A stretch of 56,748 nucleotides of DNA from Thermoplasmatales archaeon SW_10_69_26 (GTDB lineage Archaea; Thermoplasmatota; SW-10-69-26), in the NCBI GenBank assembly GCA_003009755.1, contig PXUB01000041.1:1-56748 (forward strand), given 5' to 3'. Below the pieces are notes generated by a model. The model did not search any database. It was given only the letters and a program-made list of their open reading frames with translations, and was not told where the DNA came from. This document shows positions 333 through 56,748 of the stretch, one piece after another; positions within the stretch are counted from its first letter, which is position 1, and the number at the start of each line of letters is the position of its first letter. Made by a program: the position numbers and the translations under genes.

Positions 333-1907
333 CTACGAGGCGGTTACGCCGTAGAGCCGGTCGGCGTCGCCTCGGTTGCTGTTGGACTGGAGGAACCCGA
401 GCTCGTCGATCTCCTCCGAGTGCGGGCCCTGGTAGTCGAGCACGTAGAGCCCGTTGCGCGCATCGACGACGTAGATCAGGCCGTCCTGGACGACGGGGTA
501 GCTCCACATCGCGACCTTGTAGGGGCCCTGGGTGCCCGGCGGGTACTCCTGCGTCACGGCAGGGATCGGTCGGGGCCGGAAGTTGCCCACCTGCTCGGGG
601 GCGGTCGGGTCCGTGGTGTCGACGACGACGAGGCCGCCCGCGAACCAGCTGTTGACGGCCAGGTGCTCGGTGACCAGGGGCGTGTGCGACGAGAACGTCG
701 TCGTGTTCGAAGCCAGCGGACCCTCCGCCGACTCACAGAAGGCCTCCGTGTTCTCCGCCGTCTTGAACGAGGAGAGCACCTCGGGATCGGCGGGGTCCGT
801 CACGTCGATGGCTCTGGCCCACGTCCAGGGGCAGCCGACCGTCAGCCGCTCGAACCCGGCGATCGTCGGGATCTTGGCGTACTCACCGAAGGACTCGTCC
901 GTCGTCCAGACGACGTCCCGGCCGGGGACCTTGAGTGCGCTGTGGGCCCCGGGACCCGACCAGTCAGCCCGGTTCTCGACAGGCGTGACCAGCCCCATCT
1001 CGGGATCGAGCACCCCAGCGGCCACCTCGCTCGTGTCGAGGACCAGGAACCCGCCCTCCCAGTGCGCCAGGTACGCGCGCTGACCATCGGGGTGCACGGA
1101 GAGCGAGTGCAACCAGTGAGGGATCGGCTCCTCGGGTTCCCAGTCCGCGATCTCGACGACATCACCGCCGTCGGGGACCTCGGAGACGTCGGCGACCACG
1201 ATGTCCGCCTCGCCCCCTTGCATCGATTGGTACAACAGGGCTCGCTGGGGATCAGCGGGATCGATCCACAGGTGGAATTCGTGCGGCTGGGCCCGGGGCA
1301 CGTAGGTCGTCACGTGTTCCGGGTCGGCGGCGTTGTCCCCGGAGACGTCGTAGATCTCGATGTCCGGGGTCGGCGAGGCTCCCTCCGTGTTGTAGCACCC
1401 GTGCGCGACCGCCTCGCACTTCAGATTCATGACGAAGAGGAGCCCCGCGTCCGGCCACACGCGGAGCTCCGGGCTGCTCAACCCGTGCTCGGCCTGGTGC
1501 GGCTGGCCGATCCGGTCGACGACCGTGGGATCGGAGGGGTCACTGACGTCGACCACGAGCACGCCGGCTTTCTCGTGGGTTCCGTCCGCGCGGAAACCCA
1601 CGTAGGCGTGGTCCCCGGAGAGAGCCACGTTCGTGTTCGAGCCCCGGAACTCCAGTGGGGTGTGACCCACGAGTTCGAGGTTCTCGGCCTCCTGCGTCAC
1701 GGGTAGCGCCGGCTTTTCGGCAGCCAGGGGACCGGGCAAGAGAGCCGCGATCGGCTCGTCGGCTTCGGCGTCCAGCGAAGATGGCGTCTCAGTCTGCGTG
1801 GGATCCGGGGGAACGTGGGCCCCTGCCAGCCCAAGCGCCACGACCGCGGCTACGCATCCCAGACCCACAAGGCTCCAGATCCGAGCGTCCCTAGCTCTGC
1901 CTCCCAT
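333..1907 (-). CDS. Secreted LVIVD-repeat beta-propeller protein
   Basis: N-terminal hydrophobic signal; repeated GVLVVDVSDPSDP / GGFLVLDTS / GGLVVVDTTDPTAP motifs; ENLELVGH start of propeller. Confidence 0.8.
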   Translation of the reverse strand: MGGRARDARIWSLVGLGCVAAVVALGLAGAHVPPDPTQTETPSSLDAEADEPIAALLPGPLAAEKPALPVTQEAENLELVGHTPLEFRGSNTNVALSGDHAYVGFRADGTHEKAGVLVVDVSDPSDPTVVDRIGQPHQAEHGLSSPELRVWPDAGLLFVMNLKCEAVAHGCYNTEGASPTPDIEIYDVSGDNAADPEHVTTYVPRAQPHEFHLWIDPADPQRALLYQSMQGGEADIVVADVSEVPDGGDVVEIADWEPEEPIPHWLHSLSVHPDGQRAYLAHWEGGFLVLDTSEVAAGVLDPEMGLVTPVENRADWSGPGAHSALKVPGRDVVWTTDESFGEYAKIPTIAGFERLTVGCPWTWARAIDVTDPADPEVLSSFKTAENTEAFCESAEGPLASNTTTFSSHTPLVTEHLAVNSWFAGGLVVVDTTDPTAPEQVGNFRPRPIPAVTQEYPPGTQGPYKVAMWSYPVVQDGLIYVVDARNGLYVLDYQGPHSEEIDELGFLQSNSNRGDADRLYGVTAS

Positions 1908-1992
1908 CCAGGATCCACTCGGCTCAGACCCTGGGACTATGTCAAGGTTTCGCAGGGAGGGTCTTGGACGGTTCGAGACTCGACCCTCGATC

Positions 1993-2304
1993 CTACCGCT
2001 CGTCGAGCGGGATCCGCCGCTCCCGCCCGCAGGCCTCGCAGACCGTTGTCACCGAACCGCCCTGGATCCGCACGCGGGCCGTCCGGTCCGGGACGAGGTA
2101 GGCCTTGCAGCTTCGGCACACACGCTGCTTGAGCTCGTCGCTGGCTTCCAGCTCGTACCGGGTCGTCAACCGCCAGGCCAGCTCGCCGTAGCGGTCCGCA
2201 TCCGGCAACCGGTCGGCCAGGGCTGCCTCTCGCGCCAGGTCCAACAGCTCGGAGCGGCGCCGGCGGGCGACCTCGGCGTGGGACTTGCGGCAGCGGTCGG
2301 CCAC
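1993..2304 (-). CDS. rnp4: Ribonuclease P protein component 4 (Rpp21)
   Basis: 103 aa; ADRYGELAWRL, KQRVCRSC...LVP...RVR...CEACGRERRIP zinc-ribbon pattern typical of Rpp21. Confidence 0.9.
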   Translation of the reverse strand: MADRCRKSHAEVARRRRSELLDLAREAALADRLPDADRYGELAWRLTTRYELEASDELKQRVCRSCKAYLVPDRTARVRIQGGSVTTVCEACGRERRIPLDER

Positions 2305-2365
2305 GACGGTGGGAGAGGGGTCCGGGGGAAAAACGGTTCGGCGGGGCGACGGCGTTCGCGGACCG

Positions 2366-2690
2366 AGAGCTGCAGGGGTTCGAGACCGGCTTCGGGGCGT
2401 CTTTTGCGCCGGTCTCGAACTTCGGACGAACCCGCCTTCGCCGGTGTTTCTACGGGCGGGTTCGTCCTCGCTCTCGACCGATGCGCGTTGCTGTGCGGGT
2501 ATTGGAACTCGGGAGAAGCATCGGTCGAGAGCCGCGGGGGTTCGAGACCGGCAAGATTCACCGGCCCGTCGGTCTCGAACTTCGCACGAACGCTCATCGG
2601 CTCGGTTGCACGAGCGTTCGTGCTCGCTCTCGAAGAAGCGTGACGCTGTGATTTTAGGAGAGCTGCGGAGAAGGCTTCTTCAAGAGCCGC
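2366..2690 (-). repeat. Tandem array of two ~160-bp three-hairpin modules directly 3' of tRNA-Thr(GGU)
   Basis: Stems (plus coordinates): 2378-2390/2408-2420, 2424-2436/2455-2467, 2470-2484/2518-2532, then 2540-2552/2568-2580, 2584-2595/2612-2623, 2626-2639/2674-2687. Identical linkers TTC and TC between stems. Confidence 0.85.
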
Positions 2691-2756
2691 CCCCGAGATT
2701 TGAACCCGGGACCTCCTCCTTACCAAGGAGGTGCTCTACCACTGAGCCAGGGCGGC
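2685..2756 (-). tRNA. tRNA-Thr(GGU)
   Basis: Reverse complement GCCGCCCTGGCTCAGTGGTAGAGCACCTCC-TTGGTAA-GGAGGAGGTCCCGGGTTCAAATCTCGGGGGCGGCT folds as a cloverleaf; anticodon GGT. Confidence 0.95.
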
Positions 2757-2913
2757 TGAAGTACCGGAGCCATCCAAGGCCCCCTATTAGAGCCTTGCGA
2801 GGGTGGATGGCACGGCCCACCGTGGGAAAGCCCGCCCCCTCAGCTCTCGAACCGTAGTTCCACACCGCCCCTGTGTGAACCCGCAAACGGGCCGGACCCC
2901 TCCCGGGGGATCG

Positions 2914-3846
2914 ATGGGGTCCGCAGGCGAGCGCGACGACAGCCGCCACGCCCTCCTCTCGAAGGCCCGACCGGTCCAGCAGACGAGCGTCGAGGCCTTC
3001 GTCGGCCACCGCCACGAGAGCCGCGATCGCCCCTCTCCGCCGCGCTCGGAGTTCGGCACCTACCAGGTGAAGGAGCTCGAGGTCGACTCGGCGCTCACCG
3101 ATTGCTCGCTGCCGAGCCGCTGCTGGTCTCTGAACCCCTACACCGGGTGCTCGCACGACTGCGCCTACTGCTACGTCCCCGACGTCGCCCACCTCGAACG
3201 CGGCAACTGGGGCGACTACGTTGTGGCCAAGACCAACCTCCCCCGCAAGCTCGAGCACGAGCTCAAGACCAAGCCCCGACGCTCGGTGTTCCTCTCCTCC
3301 GCCACGGACCCCTACCAACCGGCCGAGGATCGCCACCGGATCACCCGCCGGAGCCTCGAGCTGCTCGTCCGCGAGGGATGGCCGGTTCTCATCCTCACCC
3401 GCAGCCCTCTCGTCGAGCGCGACCTCGATCTCCTCACTCAGCTCGAGGACGTCGCCGTCGGGATGTCGATCCCGACGATCGACGACGAGGCGCGCCAGGT
3501 GTTGGAACCGACGGCTCCCCCGATCGAGGGTCGGTTGAACGCGATCAGCGCCCTCGCCGACGCTGGGCTGGAACCGTTCGTCAACGTCGCCCCTGCCTAC
3601 CCCCTCACCAACGGCATCCGACCCGACGAGGTCGCCGAGGCGATCGCCGACGCCGGCGCCGCCGAGGTCTTCCTGAGCCGATGGCGCTACCTCGACGACG
3701 TCGTCCCGGTGCTCGCCGACCGCGTTGACGGATCGATCTACGGGGACTTCGTCGACGCCGTGCAGGACGAGAGCTACTACGACCGGTTGCTCGCCTCCCT
3801 GCAGGGTGCCTTTCGCCGCGCCGGCATCCCGCTGCGCCGGATGTGA
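2914..3846 (+). CDS. Radical SAM protein, SplB/Rv2578c-like (DNA-repair photolyase-related)
   Basis: SLNPYTGCSHDCAYCY (CxxxCxxC), SSATDPYQPAE, ITRRSLE, ILTRSPLVERDLDLL, LEP.APP. Start moved to ATG 2914. Confidence 0.85.
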   Translation: MGSAGERDDSRHALLSKARPVQQTSVEAFVGHRHESRDRPSPPRSEFGTYQVKELEVDSALTDCSLPSRCWSLNPYTGCSHDCAYCYVPDVAHLERGNWGDYVVAKTNLPRKLEHELKTKPRRSVFLSSATDPYQPAEDRHRITRRSLELLVREGWPVLILTRSPLVERDLDLLTQLEDVAVGMSIPTIDDEARQVLEPTAPPIEGRLNAISALADAGLEPFVNVAPAYPLTNGIRPDEVAEAIADAGAAEVFLSRWRYLDDVVPVLADRVDGSIYGDFVDAVQDESYYDRLLASLQGAFRRAGIPLRRM

Positions 3847-3913
3847 CCGATCCCCGGCCCCGGCCGGTGCCCGCAACCGCCAAGTAGGCAGGCTCCCTCG
3901 GGCGACTCGCAGC

Positions 3914-4165
3914 ATGCCGGCAGAGAACGCGGTCCAGGTCTCCGTCAGCTACCACGGCCTCGACCACGACGAGGAGACCGTCGAGGTCGAACCAGGGACC
4001 AGCTTCGACGCGTTCCTGCGCGAGCGCGACATCCACCCCGAGACCGTTCTGGTGTTCCTCGACGGCGACGTCGTGCCCGAGCAGACCGAGATCCCGCCCG
4101 AGACCGACGTGCGGATCTTGCGCATCATCTCGGGTGGGGAAGCCGACAAGCGACCGAAGCGTTGA
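3914..4165 (+). CDS. Ubiquitin-like small archaeal modifier / sulfur carrier (SAMP2/ThiS/MoaD-like) with a C-terminal extension
   Basis: 83 aa; beta-grasp pattern ...HPETVLVFLDGDVVPE...DVRILRIISGG followed by EADKRPKR. Confidence 0.8.
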   Translation: MPAENAVQVSVSYHGLDHDEETVEVEPGTSFDAFLRERDIHPETVLVFLDGDVVPEQTEIPPETDVRILRIISGGEADKRPKR

Positions 4166-4193
4166 TACCCTGGACGCTTTTCGCTGCCTTGCT

Positions 4194-4268
4194 GGTCCCG
4201 TGGTGTAGTCCGGCCAATCATGCCGGCCTTTCGAGCCAGTCACCCGGGTTCAAATCCCGGCGGGACCA
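4194..4268 (+). tRNA. tRNA-Glu(UUC)
   Basis: GGTCCCGTGGTGTAGTCCGGCCAATCATGCCGGC-CTTTCGA-GCCAGTCACCCGGGTTCAAATCCCGGCGGGACCA; archaeal Glu-type D arm, anticodon TTC at 4230-4232. Confidence 0.9.
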
Positions 4269-4377
4269 CTCGCTAACGGCCGGGATTTGAACCGACGGTT
4301 CACGAGCAAGCCCGCAGGGCTTGCGAGCCGTACGAACCGAGCGCAGTGAGGTTCGTGCCCGAATCCCGGCGGGACCA
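4269..4377 (+). mobile_element. 109-bp tRNA-3'-end-associated palindromic mini-element
   Basis: 16-bp direct repeat of the tRNA 3' end (AATCCCGGCGGGACCA at 4253-4268 and 4362-4377); 15-bp inverted copy of the T-arm at 4279-4293; internal hairpins 4306-4324 and 4330-4358. Confidence 0.7.
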
Positions 4378-4513
4378 TGACCTTCTCTTCTTTCCCACAG
4401 CTCCACCGAAGAGAAGGTCATGGGAGCACGCCTCCGAGGTCCGACGCCGGGGAGGCGTGCGAACCTGGAGACCGGCGAGCGACCCCCGAAGAGGTGGAGC
4501 GCCGCCGGTCTCC
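4375..4513 (+). repeat. Three-hairpin module (same architecture as the tRNA-Thr array)
   Basis: Stems 4375-4390/4408-4423, linker GA, 4426-4435/4451-4460, linker GAA(cct), 4467-4477/4503-4513. Confidence 0.75.
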
Positions 4514-4928
4514 CGTCCCGTCGTCTCGCGAGACCTGCACCGTTCACGTCCCTCGCGGTCCGTCCGAGGTGAGGCAAGCACGGCTGCCGTCCCATCCGTT
4601 CGTGCCCGCGAACGGAACCCTGGGCCTGACCCTGAAGCTCTCGATTGCCACGGCGGGCCCTTGGGCCCCGCCGGTCGGGCCGTCTCCCTGCCGCGGACCG
4701 ACGATCGACTCTCCCGATCCTCGTCGCAAGCGGTCCGGCCGGTGCTCATCTCCCGTCGTCTCCCCCTGCCAGCCACCGGCTAGGCCTGTGAGCGGCTTGG
4801 ACCGCATCCCCGACGCTGTCACCATTCCGAAACGCCCTAGGCCGCCGGATATCTTCGCGCCAACGCCTAACGGCGCAACGCTGCTTGCCTCTCTTGGCCC
4901 CCATACGTGGGGAGGCCAGGAGAACACC

Positions 4929-7989: not shown

Positions 7990-8133
7990 TACCTCCTCAA
8001 AGAGGTGCGCCTCGAGGTCTTGGTAGCCGGCCTCGTTGTTCGCGATTGAGAAGGTCTCAAGGGTTGTGCCCTCCTCGTCCAAACGGTGTACAGCGCAGTG
8101 GTCTTTCCCGACGTCGATGCCTACGGAGTGGAT
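7990..8133 (-). pseudogene. IS110-family transposase N-terminal (DEDD/RuvC-like) fragment
   Basis: IHSVGIDVGKDHCAVHRLDEEGTTLETFSIANNEAGYQDL. AGGAGG RBS at 8149-8144; the expected start codon reads ATC; similarity ends after about 45 codons. Confidence 0.75.
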
Positions 8134-34031: not shown

Positions 34032-34314
34032 CGAATCCGTCGTAGGCGGTCCCGAGACTTAAGGGTGTCTTTCCGTCCGGTATCAGGTGTAGACCGCCAT
34101 CGGGCGGCGGGGATCAGACGTTCTCACACGGCCGCACGTTCCCCTCTTCCCGACCTCGCCCGCCGTCGCTCCCAACCGAGACGACTGAGCCAGCGTGTCC
34201 GCCGTTCCCTGCGGGTCCGCCGTCGCCGCCGTCTTGACCATCCTCGCCGGCTGGGCCCGGGAGAGTGCCGGCCCCGCCGTCAGCTCTCTGCACGATCTGG
34301 GTGGACGCTTAGAG

Positions 34315-34388
34315 AGCCACCGGAGGGATTCGAACCCTCGACCCGCTCCTTACAAGGGAGCTGCTCTCCCGGACTGAGCTACGGTGGC
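34315..34388 (-). tRNA. tRNA-Thr(UGU)
   Basis: Reverse complement GCCACCGTAGCTCAGTCCGGGAGAGCAGCTCC-CTTGTAA-GGAGCGGGTCGAGGGTTCGAATCCCTCCGGTGGCT; anticodon TGT. Confidence 0.95.
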
Positions 34389-45551: not shown

Positions 45552-46382
45552 TCAGCCTTCGAGCTCGTCGGAGACGTCGTCGACGAGGTCCTCGTCGACC
45601 TCTTCCGCCTCGTCTTCGTTCTCGGCGGCCTCTTCGGTCTCCTCGCCCTCGTCGGTCTCCTCGGCTTCCTCGGGCTCTTCGGCCGGTTCGTCCTCGTCGA
45701 CGTCCTCGGCCTCGTCGGCCTCTTCGGTTTCCTCGTCTTCCTCGTCCTCGGGCGGGGCGAAGACGTCGAGGGTCTCGGTGGCGTCCTCGGGCTCGCTGAC
45801 GACCTCGCTCTTGCGGACCTCCACCCGCTTGAGCGGCAGGATCAGGCGCGCCTGCTCGTAGATCTCCTTGGCGACGTCACCCTCGAGCACGTTGAGCACG
45901 AGGTCGCTGAAGTCCGTGTTGGATGCCTCCTCGCAGACCTCGCGAGCCCGCTTGCGGATCTCCTTCCGTTGGGCTTCCTGGGTGCGGCGCTCGGAGACGA
46001 TCATCGGCTTGAGGCGGACGGTGAAGCCGTCCGACGTGGTGACGTCGTGGACGACGTCGATCTTGGAGTGGCTTCGTCGGACCAGCCGTCGCACGTAGTC
46101 GGAGGTCAGGTCGTGCCCGTCGAAGGTGGTGACGGCGTCGGTGCCGCGCGTGCCACGGATCCGGAAGTAGCATTTGACGTGCTGCTTCGAGAAGTCCCCC
46201 GTGACGTCCTGGAGCGTGGCCTCAGCCACCCGGTCCTCGAGCTTCTCCTCCTCGTCGGCGAGGGTTTCCCCGATCTCGGCATCGTTGAAGATCGCGGGAG
46301 CTCGGATGGTGTACCACTGCTTCTCCTGCCATTTATCCGCCGACGTTCGGGCAGCCTGGCGGGCAGATCGCTTCTTCGCCAT
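45552..46382 (-). CDS. rps3ae: 30S ribosomal protein S3Ae (eS1) with a long acidic C-terminal tail
   Basis: DKW..K.WY.I.AP..F....IGET, R..E.TL.D.TGD, F.GH.LT.DY.R.LVRR..SKID, I.PL.RVEVRKS. Confidence 0.95.
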   Translation of the reverse strand: MAKKRSARQAARTSADKWQEKQWYTIRAPAIFNDAEIGETLADEEEKLEDRVAEATLQDVTGDFSKQHVKCYFRIRGTRGTDAVTTFDGHDLTSDYVRRLVRRSHSKIDVVHDVTTSDGFTVRLKPMIVSERRTQEAQRKEIRKRAREVCEEASNTDFSDLVLNVLEGDVAKEIYEQARLILPLKRVEVRKSEVVSEPEDATETLDVFAPPEDEEDEETEEADEAEDVDEDEPAEEPEEAEETDEGEETEEAAENEDEAEEVDEDLVDDVSDELEG

Positions 46383-56411: not shown

Positions 56412-56748
56412 TCGGGGGAGTCAGGTGGGCTCGTGGTCATCCGAGCATCGGGCCGGGCGGTGGGTGTCGGCCAGCGATGCTCGGACTTCGTACGAACCTC
56501 GCGAGGCTCGGTTCGTACTCGTTCGGGACGGCGGAGCCGGAAGGCGAAACCTCGGAAGCCTCTGGCTCGGCGGTCGTTCAGTGGAGGCTGGCCGGGCCTG
56601 CCAGTTCGGAAGACGTGTTCCTCGTTCGGATCTGGACTCGGGGGAGTCAGGCGGGCTTGTGGTTATCCGAGCATCGGGCCGGGCGGTGGGTGTCGGCCAG
56701 CGATGCTCGGACTTCGTACGAACCTCGCGGGGCTCGGTTCGTACTCGT
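56412..56748. repeat. Tandem 226-bp hairpin-rich repeat (second copy cut by the window edge)
   Basis: 56412-56522 recurs at 56638-56748 with 4 substitutions; stems 56440-56450/56475-56485 and 56490-56498/56510-56518 joined by CTTC. Confidence 0.9.

Follow-up and report, generated by a model that had tools for sequence, protein, structure and literature searches.

Two tandem three-hairpin cassettes follow the 3′ end of tRNA-Thr(GGU) in the genome of an uncultured salt-rock archaeon (2.82 Mb in 49 contigs, 69% G+C). They belong to a family of gene-end modules in which the 5′ arm of the first hairpin, hairpin C, is the upstream gene's own end, i.e. the 3′ end of a tRNA or the last codons and stop of a protein gene. 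The cassettes are best read as DNA elements and not as a dedicated tRNA-linked RNA. The window, by which we mean the whole stretch of DNA that was analysed, comprises the first 56,748 bases of one contig (C41), and its DNA is also present in halite metagenome runs.

Read in the direction of the tRNA, the 320 bases past tRNA-Thr are composed of two units. In each unit, stems C, B and A follow in this order, with the linkers GA(G) after C and (C)GAA after B, and the unit closes with a repeat of the last 8 bases of the tRNA (Table 1). The six stems are 11–15 bp long; five of them are perfect, and the sixth contains one mismatch. Blocks of direct repeats recur in the two units with spacings of 162, 160 and 156 bp. 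Stem C of the proximal unit extends to position 2687, with the last 3–4 bases of tRNA-Thr used in its foot. An initial annotation, made from the sequence alone, had described two tandem three-hairpin units of ∼160 bp at this tRNA end, with short GA and GAA linkers, a first stem C that overlaps the tRNA, and 8-bp echoes of the tRNA end at 2683, 2528 and 2366. The stems, spacings, linkers and overlap were all recovered, and the echoes proved identical at 2683 and 2528, with one change at 2366. Folded as RNA, the 333-nt stretch that contains the array has an energy of −168.4 kcal/mol versus −122.5 ± 5.2 kcal/mol for 100 dinucleotide shuffles (z −8.9; 0/100 shuffles as good), and the corresponding DNA fold has a z of −6.9.

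Table 1. Coordinates of the cassettes, their stems and the neighboring genes in the window
Feature	Positions	Strand	Details
RNase P protein Rpr2/Rpp21, downstream gene	1993-2304	minus	Pfam PF04032, E 6.7e-10; same neighbor in G001
T5 run, likely tRNA terminator	2329-2333	minus	A5 on + strand; now displaced behind both cassettes
Distal cassette (unit 2)	2364-2527	minus	R1 match 2377-2471, E 4.6e-9
Echo after unit 2	2366-2373	minus	one change versus the 8-mer; ancestral tRNA flank next
Stem A, distal unit	2378-2390/2408-2420		13 bp, 100%
Stem B, distal unit	2424-2436/2455-2467		13 bp, 100%
Stem C, distal unit	2470-2484/2518-2532		15 bp, 100%
Proximal cassette (unit 1)	2528-2683	minus	R1 match 2539-2627, E 9e-10
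Echo at unit 1/unit 2 boundary	2528-2535	minus	identical 8-mer; site of X2 joint
Stem A, proximal unit	2540-2550/2570-2580		11 bp, 100%
Stem B, proximal unit	2584-2595/2612-2623		12 bp, 100%
Stem C, proximal unit	2626-2639/2674-2687		14 bp, 93%; lone mismatch is U-G in tRNA direction
tRNA 3′-end 8-mer, original of the echo	2683-2690	minus	
tRNA-Thr(GGU)	2684-2756	minus	ARAGORN; Rfam RF00005 2685-2756, 67.6 bits; last bases are the foot of the first hairpin
tRNA-Glu(UUC)	4194-4269	plus	ARAGORN, Rfam
Second kind of cassette, behind tRNA-Glu	4270-4377	plus	inverted copy of tRNA 3′ part and two hairpins
Three-hairpin module, same family	4375-4513	plus	R1 match 4422-4517
Family member, B and A hairpins	56445-56522	minus	R1 match, E 1e-5
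Family member, cut by window end and assembly gap (Ns)	56671-56748	minus	R1 match, E 7.3e-6

The flank that lies behind the array was compared with that of a relative from another genus of the same family (G001), in which no hairpins are present and a short flank containing a T5 run separates tRNA-Thr from the Rpr2/Rpp21 gene. The DNA beyond the echo at 2366–2373 resembles the immediate tRNA-Thr flank of this cassette-free genome, and the GAACCGTTTTT context around the T5 run is also found there, 14 nt past tRNA-Thr. Because the G001-type flank and the T5 run come after the last echo, the two units sit between tRNA-Thr and the old flank, and the location of the T5 run behind the array means that the cassettes are probably transcribed within the tRNA trailer. 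Two further relatives (G002 and G003) each carry one module at tRNA-Thr, with the same linkers and with stems that are unrelated to those of the window units; the 3′ arm of this module finishes in the complement of their own tRNA end. When the locus was searched as DNA against 40 relatives, the tRNA part alone was matched, and the units had no sequence-level orthologues. A search for a donor within the host genome found a near-identical copy of neither unit, the best matches being 83% over 64 nt and 89% over 35 nt. For a gene that neighbors the array, the closest relative among named archaea is a Thermoplasmatota MAG (51% identity).

Further cassettes are present elsewhere in the window. The one behind tRNA-Glu(UUC) is of a second kind: its inverted copy of the tRNA is 15 nt long and located at +9, and it ends in a 16-nt direct copy (4362–4377) of tRNA bases 4253–4268, with a start-to-start distance of 109. 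The first stem of the adjoining three-hairpin module begins in the last 3 bases of this duplicated tRNA-Glu end. The stretches 4375–4513 and 56412–56748, which had been named as additional units, both match the covariance model of the family (R1, described below). Rfam at gathering score returned three tRNAs alone over the whole window, and at E ≤ 10 over 2200–4700 it returned, besides the tRNAs, chance microRNA matches of no credibility, in keeping with the initial statement that the structure was not recognised as a named family.

The size of the family was estimated in two ways. A scan for perfect stems with neighboring stems, joined by GA and GAA/GGA linkers, identified 31 strict three-hairpin modules in the genome versus 0, 0 and 1 in three dinucleotide-shuffled genomes, and perfect stems of ≥12 bp numbered 192 versus 32–38 in shuffled genomes. 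In an alignment of 28 B–A cores, the linker bases and a C-G/G-C foot are invariant. In the foot of hairpin B, G-N-A/C-C-G ... C-G-T/G-N-C, no base is left unpaired, and hairpin A, which follows the GAA/GGAT linker, is of the GAGACC type or of the GCGAGCATCG type. Modelling the units and scanning the genome had been suggested at the outset; the resulting covariance model R1, built from the 28-copy core alignment, yielded at least 64 matches at E ≤ 1e-3, a lower bound from a search in which 150 of ∼10,000 candidates were scored. The cassettes form about 45 arrays in the genome.

The copies sit downstream of genes and are co-oriented with the upstream gene. Gene context was taken from a crude ORF caller (1773 ORFs chosen by GC3), and the tRNA set comprised the 43 of 57 ARAGORN calls that passed a T-loop filter. 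Seventeen of the 64 matches are located within 600 nt downstream of a same-strand tRNA, where evenly spread matches would number ∼0.3 by rough arithmetic; they lie behind 12 different tRNAs (12/43), and a single match is antisense beside a tRNA. Between tandem genes, 14 matches are sense and none is antisense. The remainder lie between convergent genes (18 matches), between divergent genes (5), inside crude ORFs (3) and at contig edges (6). For the 39 matches that had not been used in training, informative contexts gave 17 sense (9 + 8) and 1 antisense. tRNA ends are strongly preferred, yet protein gene ends are used too. The proposed tie to tRNA 3′ ends thus holds as an enrichment but not as a restriction, since most of the matches that are not behind tRNAs follow protein genes.

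Both tRNA and protein genes show where the 5′ arm of hairpin C comes from. Inverted copies (≥10 nt) of the last 24 nt of a tRNA are found within 400 nt downstream of 18/43 tRNAs and upstream of 0/43, and direct copies, by the same measure, downstream of 20/43 and upstream of 2/43. The direct copies are typically located 107–135 nt downstream. Copies of tRNA ends elsewhere in the genome were sought as exact 13-mers, and one such displaced copy, 13.4 kb behind tRNA-Phe, itself serves as the 5′ arm of hairpin C in a module. Where hairpin C lies at a protein gene, the stop codon falls within the arm or loop, as seen for AspRS, an Spt5/NusG-like gene, HtpX, the thermosome and a further ORF. In AspRS, the arm is the coding sequence of the conserved FPRDR motif. 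At the AspRS end, stems of 18, 17, 17 and 13 Watson–Crick pairs, which start at the same codon, are formed in the host genome (G000), G005, G002 and G006, respectively, the last of these from another family, and the 3′ arm in each of the four is the complement of the codons present in the same genome. The best stems at this position in five other genomes are only 6–8 pairs long (background), and in one of these five, G008, the AspRS gene has the coding bases seen in G005, with the 3′ arm absent. The end of HtpX forms stems of 18, 18 and 12 pairs in three genomes versus 6–8 in four. The modules are kept at the same gene ends in three genera, with protein identities of 72–83%. As the 3′ arms match each genome's own codons, information flows from the gene to the non-coding arm.

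Contigs of four halite metagenome runs were compared over positions 1800–4800 and revealed strain variation in the number of units. A contig of run X3 with flanks that are 97–98% alike skips 2364–2525 (162 bp; 7 letters fit either side), so one unit is absent. A contig of run X2 skips 2528–2682 (155 bp; 8 letters fit either side), and a third contig jumps from 2680 back to 2364, indicating an additional unit. The cassette behind tRNA-Glu varies as well: 4253–4361 is skipped by a contig of run X2 (109 bp; 16 letters fit either side), and another contig returns from 4377 to 4278. Since the joints lie inside repeats and whole units are missing or extra, each unit is a discrete cassette. The observed strain forms could all be deletions or duplications between repeats, produced by slippage or recombination. 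The initial annotation had also offered an element that inserts serially at tRNA ends; the discreteness of the cassettes, with one unit lacking or extra in other contigs, agrees with this, but their confinement to tRNA ends was not borne out. One whole unit, 138 nt long and with 6 bases of the tRNA-Arg(CCG) end in it, is also present within the array of tRNA-Arg(GCG), 5.7 kb away, with 132/138 identity; hence, units can be copied between arrays.

Among 21 genomes of the class, R1 matches outside the host genome number 10 in G005, 9 in G003 and 3 in G002. No matches were found in G001 and G004, which both belong to genus g2, or among the 15 genomes that represented five other families of the class. 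Gene-end hairpins occur outside the family as well, at AspRS of G006 and in tRNA flanks of G018 and G007, in families without an R1 match, and R1 is therefore family-specific. Judged by AspRS, g2 is the closest genus to that of the window (85% protein identity); as this genus is without any copy, the distribution is all-or-none between close genera. The pattern suggests a trans-acting factor, which our best explanation does not name. Searches for candidate enzymes returned no Y1_Tnp/RAYT (PF01797) in the host genome or in any of the five other family genomes (0/5 in G001–G005), with matches in control genomes; the HUH protein that the initial annotation had suggested looking for was thus not detected in 6/6 family genomes. 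TnpB (PF07282) was absent from the host genome and was matched within the family only in G004, which has no module, and IS110-type genes were found only in the host genome. These genomes are bins with completeness of 95% (G000) and 72–89% (G001–G005) from which IS copies may be missing, so the absence of an enzyme is not proven. No reverse transcriptase of the RVT_1 type was found in the host genome. Reverse transcription of a mature tRNA end was dropped as a source of the copies on this ground, and also because the inverted copies span the T-loop and the repeats made by integrases end at the same base. Three tyrosine-recombinase genes, each of which adjoins a tRNA, belong to integrated elements, and the elements at tRNA-Phe and tRNA-Glu(CUC) leave 14–15-nt copies of the same tRNA part.

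The pairing of the stems bears on whether RNA or DNA has been maintained. Across the 28-copy alignment, pairing in the B helix amounts to 93% versus 68.5% in shuffles, 8 of its 10 pairs change on both sides, and one-sided (G-U type) changes occur in 0/253 cells, although these counts are biased, as the training set was picked for perfect stems. The claim that the stems vary between units and yet remain paired is in this way confirmed. A less biased count, for hairpin B only, comes from the 39 non-training matches, in which 388 pairs comprise 370 Watson–Crick pairs, 8 G-U pairs and 10 other mismatches. In folded oriented arrays, G-U pairs amount to 15/1077 in the sense direction (1.4%) and 19/1093 in the antisense direction (1.7%), and the G-U share in RNAfold structures of the ARAGORN-called tRNAs of the genome is ∼10%. 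With few G-U pairs and no strand bias, there is no trace of the wobble intermediates expected of compensatory RNA evolution. The almost purely Watson–Crick stems, alike on both strands, point to DNA palindromes rather than to an evolving RNA. DNA-level templated copying explains the stem pairing as well as or better than RNA selection, and the initial reading, that the structure is selected as RNA, is not needed.

The explanation that we favor, and which we consider to have about an even chance of being correct, is that the cassettes are lineage-restricted, REP/BIME-like palindromic elements of gene ends, in which template switching makes or perfects the stems and recombination between short repeats gains or loses units. 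Each cassette consists of hairpin C, a GA linker, the family-specific hairpin B, a GAA/GGAT linker and hairpin A, and is closed by a brief direct repeat of the gene end. In hairpin C, the 3′ arm would be made as the reverse complement of the gene end by template switching during replication or repair (snap-back copying), and the stems would be kept perfect by the same process, with the reverse-complement repeat made and the stem repaired in one event. Arrays would grow and shrink through slippage or recombination between direct repeats. The B–A core may reach new gene ends through microhomology-guided template switching, inter-array recombination or some enzyme. Transcripts of the cassettes are probably cut off by tRNA 3′ processing, and a benefit, for example from a protective 3′ structure, is possible. 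Template switching is documented to create reverse-complement repeats that are able to form perfect hairpin stems and to fix the pairing of existing stems (PMC8794818), and it fits the observations made here. In the present case it is inferred from the sequence pattern.

Selection on a transcribed structure at the 3′ trailer or 3′ UTR, in the form of a terminator, an exonuclease barrier, a processing signal or a released small RNA, with the cognate factor lost in genus g2, would account for part of the data. The conserved linkers, the fixed orientation and the use of the same gene ends in three genera look like purifying selection and would fit a function, possibly at the RNA level: the GA and GAA/GGAT linkers are invariant or nearly so, orientation follows the upstream gene in 31 sense versus 1 antisense informative contexts, and the position is kept at the AspRS, HtpX and tRNA-Thr ends of the three genera. 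The T5 run behind the array, the rarity of T4 runs after genes (112/1755 crude gene ends) and the U-G identity of the sole mismatch, in stem C of unit 1, are also as such an RNA would have them. However, G-U pairs show neither enrichment nor a difference between the strands, copy number is uneven across related genera (64, 10, 9, 3, 0 and 0), close strains gain or lack whole units without visible harm, and the pairing of hairpin C would be in competition with that of the acceptor and T arms. A terminator in particular was rejected, as TTTT is found within 60 nt downstream in 1/35 arrays and a perfect hairpin of ≥9 bp near the stop occurs in only 204/1755 crude gene ends, so that it is no general terminator. 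We therefore regard a functional RNA as unlikely, but well worth keeping in mind.

It is likewise doubtful, though far from negligible, that the cassettes represent a previously undescribed, target-templated mobile DNA. Its two-hairpin core would dock on a gene 3′ end by copying the last 9–18 bases in reverse complement, and the copied arm would be kept matched to the drifting gene. The process would depend on a trans-acting factor that three genera possess and that has disappeared from the sister genus. If this were true, such a factor could be a new kind of enzyme, or the reader of a new archaeal 3′-end system.

We consider it quite improbable that the cassettes are inserted by a tyrosine recombinase as folded single strands that mimic a tRNA 3′ end, in the manner of the integron attC or CTX phage hairpin. 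Their layout of direct copy, spacer, inverted copy, hairpin arms and direct copy would suit such a process, as would the one-sided distribution of tRNA-end copies described above (direct in 20/43 and inverted in 18/43 tRNAs downstream, 2/43 and 0 upstream), the three recombinase genes adjoining tRNAs, the 14–15-nt copies of the same tRNA part left by the tRNA-Phe and tRNA-Glu(CUC) elements, and the precise presence or absence of units with joints within repeats. However, a single recombinase site cannot account for cassettes that each bear sequence from the particular tRNA or protein gene they adjoin, and modules are also found on the coding ends of housekeeping genes. The repeat length varies, from 7–8 nt at tRNA-Thr to 16 nt in the tRNA-Glu cassette, and a conserved core such as GTTRRRY, extrahelical bases and cassette ORFs are all missing. 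The cassettes were also considered as att scars, a reading that was rejected because in the genuine integrated element, which spans 13.4 kb at tRNA-Phe, the arm adjoining attR is unlike a module.

Transposase-dependent miniature elements, i.e. REP/REPIN sequences moved by RAYT or PATE-type remnants of IS200/IS605 whose transposase was lost from the bins through poor IS assembly, are very improbable, because although the cassettes are palindromic, intergenic, multi-copy, lineage-restricted and strain-variable like REPs and the Haloquadratum PATEs/SMRs (PMC3119063, PMC3733652), Y1_Tnp is absent from the six family genomes and TnpB is confined to module-free G004, the units run head to tail and do not alternate, one arm of hairpin C is host sequence, and no unpaired GTAG or CGTC tag is present.

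The preferred reading of the cassettes as palindromic DNA elements shaped by template switching has several implications. Its analysis offers a clear natural case for the templated creation and upkeep of hairpins, in which the 3′ arm follows the gene arm across genera. Conservation of structure with variable sequence is often taken as proof of a functional RNA; such a look arises here at the DNA level, which is a caution against calling non-coding RNAs from covariation alone. Small palindromic repeats are well known in bacteria and, to our knowledge, poorly charted in archaea. With ∼45 arrays, strain polymorphism and all-or-none sister genera, the family is a tractable system in which to find the responsible factor. 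For annotation, the cassettes account for the incomplete copies of tRNAs, and for the ‘exploded’ tRNAs, that are encountered in other parts of the genome.

The closest known kinds of element are REP/BIME-type repeats and the transposase-free repeats of Haloquadratum, and the cassettes lack the properties that define them; in the REP, PATE and MITE literature, which was covered in part, no description of archaeal gene-end-templated hairpin modules was found. REP, BIME and REPIN sequences likewise consist of short palindromes, rich in G+C, that form mosaic arrays behind genes and sometimes overlap gene ends, and they are multi-copy, lineage-specific and variable among strains. In contrast, REPs are palindromes of 20–40 bp, and the cassettes are three-hairpin modules of 100–160 bp with one arm formed by the host gene end. 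REPs are moved by RAYT, a Y1 HUH transposase, none of which was found in the six family genomes. REPs within BIMEs alternate in orientation (PMC2817692), whereas the cassettes are all head to tail with their linkers on one strand, and REPs carry an unpaired GTAG/CGTC tag (PMC3733652), whereas the foot of hairpin B is fully paired. The PATEs and SMR-A (∼110 bp) of Haloquadratum walsbyi are archaeal, transposase-free palindromic repeats that are strain-variable and piled together (PMC3119063), as the cassettes are. The palindromes of PATEs have relatives in the termini of IS605-type transposons, which the Haloquadratum genome carries (PMC3119063) and none of which was found here, a comparison made by description. 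PATEs and SMRs are also stated there to show no target duplication (PMC3119063), whereas the units described here have direct copies of the gene end at their borders (7–8 nt at tRNA-Thr, 16 nt at tRNA-Glu and 14–19 nt at other single-unit tRNA sites). MITEs carry transposon-like terminal inverted repeats and a target duplication of constant length; in the units, terminal inverted repeats spanning the whole unit were not seen, and the length of the flanking repeats varies.

Two site-specific systems share part of the architecture. Integron attC sites and the folded attP of CTX phage also keep a structure while the sequence varies, lie at a gene 3′ end in a fixed orientation, and add units serially and lose them singly. 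However, the cassettes have no integron integrase context, cassette ORFs, core triplet or extrahelical bases, and it is housekeeping genes and tRNAs that carry the sites. Integrative elements that target tRNAs, such as the 13.4-kb element at tRNA-Phe, are likewise flanked by direct repeats of tRNA sequence, namely of the 3′ portion that runs from the T arm through to the discriminator. The units described here differ in their size of 110–160 bp, in the lack of an integrase, in their presence at protein-gene ends and in the short tRNA-Thr echo of 7–8 nt. For the stems themselves, the nearest likeness is to template-switch hairpins (Monttinen and Loytynoja 2022, PMC8794818), which involve reverse-complement copies of neighboring sequence, perfect stems made in one event and multi-base ‘compensatory’ changes, in agreement with the 3′ arms seen here, which reproduce coding bases with no G-U intermediates. 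The cases treated there are single stems within RNA genes (PMC8794818), whereas here hairpin C is coupled to a two-hairpin module at no fewer than 64 gene ends, and an added spreading step is therefore needed.

Behind tRNA-Glu(UUC) lies a unit whose layout differs from that of the three-hairpin gene-end cassettes (hairpins C, B and A). It opens with a spacer, after which the T-loop/T-stem part of the tRNA recurs in inverted orientation over 15 nt. A small GAAC...GTTC hairpin and two further hairpins come next, and the unit closes with 16 nt that directly repeat the tRNA end. The same type of layout was also observed behind approximately 14 further tRNAs of the source genome, and the tRNA-Glu(UUC) unit is precisely absent in one contig from the halite metagenomes. 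The second tRNA-Thr of the window (UGU) is an internal contrast to the cassette-bearing tRNA-Thr(GGU), as the DNA behind it contains no module, no echo of at least 10 nt and no match to R1, the covariance model built from 28 B-A cores of the cassette family.

Features in the window and on other contigs (C1, C19) of the source genome
Feature	Location	Strand	Size
Unit of different layout behind tRNA-Glu(UUC)	window 4253-4378		109 bp
tRNA-Thr(UGU)	window 34314-34388	minus	
At least two additional cassette family members	window 56445-56748	minus	
Integrated element with tyrosine recombinase at tRNA-Phe	C19:58919-72700		13.4 kb
Integrated element with tyrosine recombinase at tRNA-Glu(CUC)	C1:107700-123009		

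The 5′ arm of stem A in the distal cassette behind tRNA-Thr(GGU) (window 2378-2390) differs by one mismatch in 13 bases from the T-loop/T-stem stretch of tRNA-Phe (C19). A-type hairpins may have descended from palindromes formed on tRNA ends. At both tRNA-Phe and tRNA-Glu(CUC), older hairpin modules are displaced to the far end of the integrated element, and the tRNA-Glu(CUC) end is copied at +8.5, +8.8 and +15.2 kb.

The family members at the end of the window have a unit size of ∼226 bp and form an array that reaches an assembly gap (Ns) just beyond the window end, and the array is probably longer than its assembled length. A tandem repeat with a period of 9/18/45 is located at 45613-45749 (TRF score up to 146). 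T4 runs within 80 nt past the gene end are rare across the whole genome (112 of 1755 crude gene ends).

A partial, weak match to an IS110-type DEDD transposase is located at window 8005-8124 on the minus strand (E 2.5e-6, under the cut-off), and there are two full matches, both close to contig ends (on C3 and C2). Palindromic repeats are targets of IS110 relatives.
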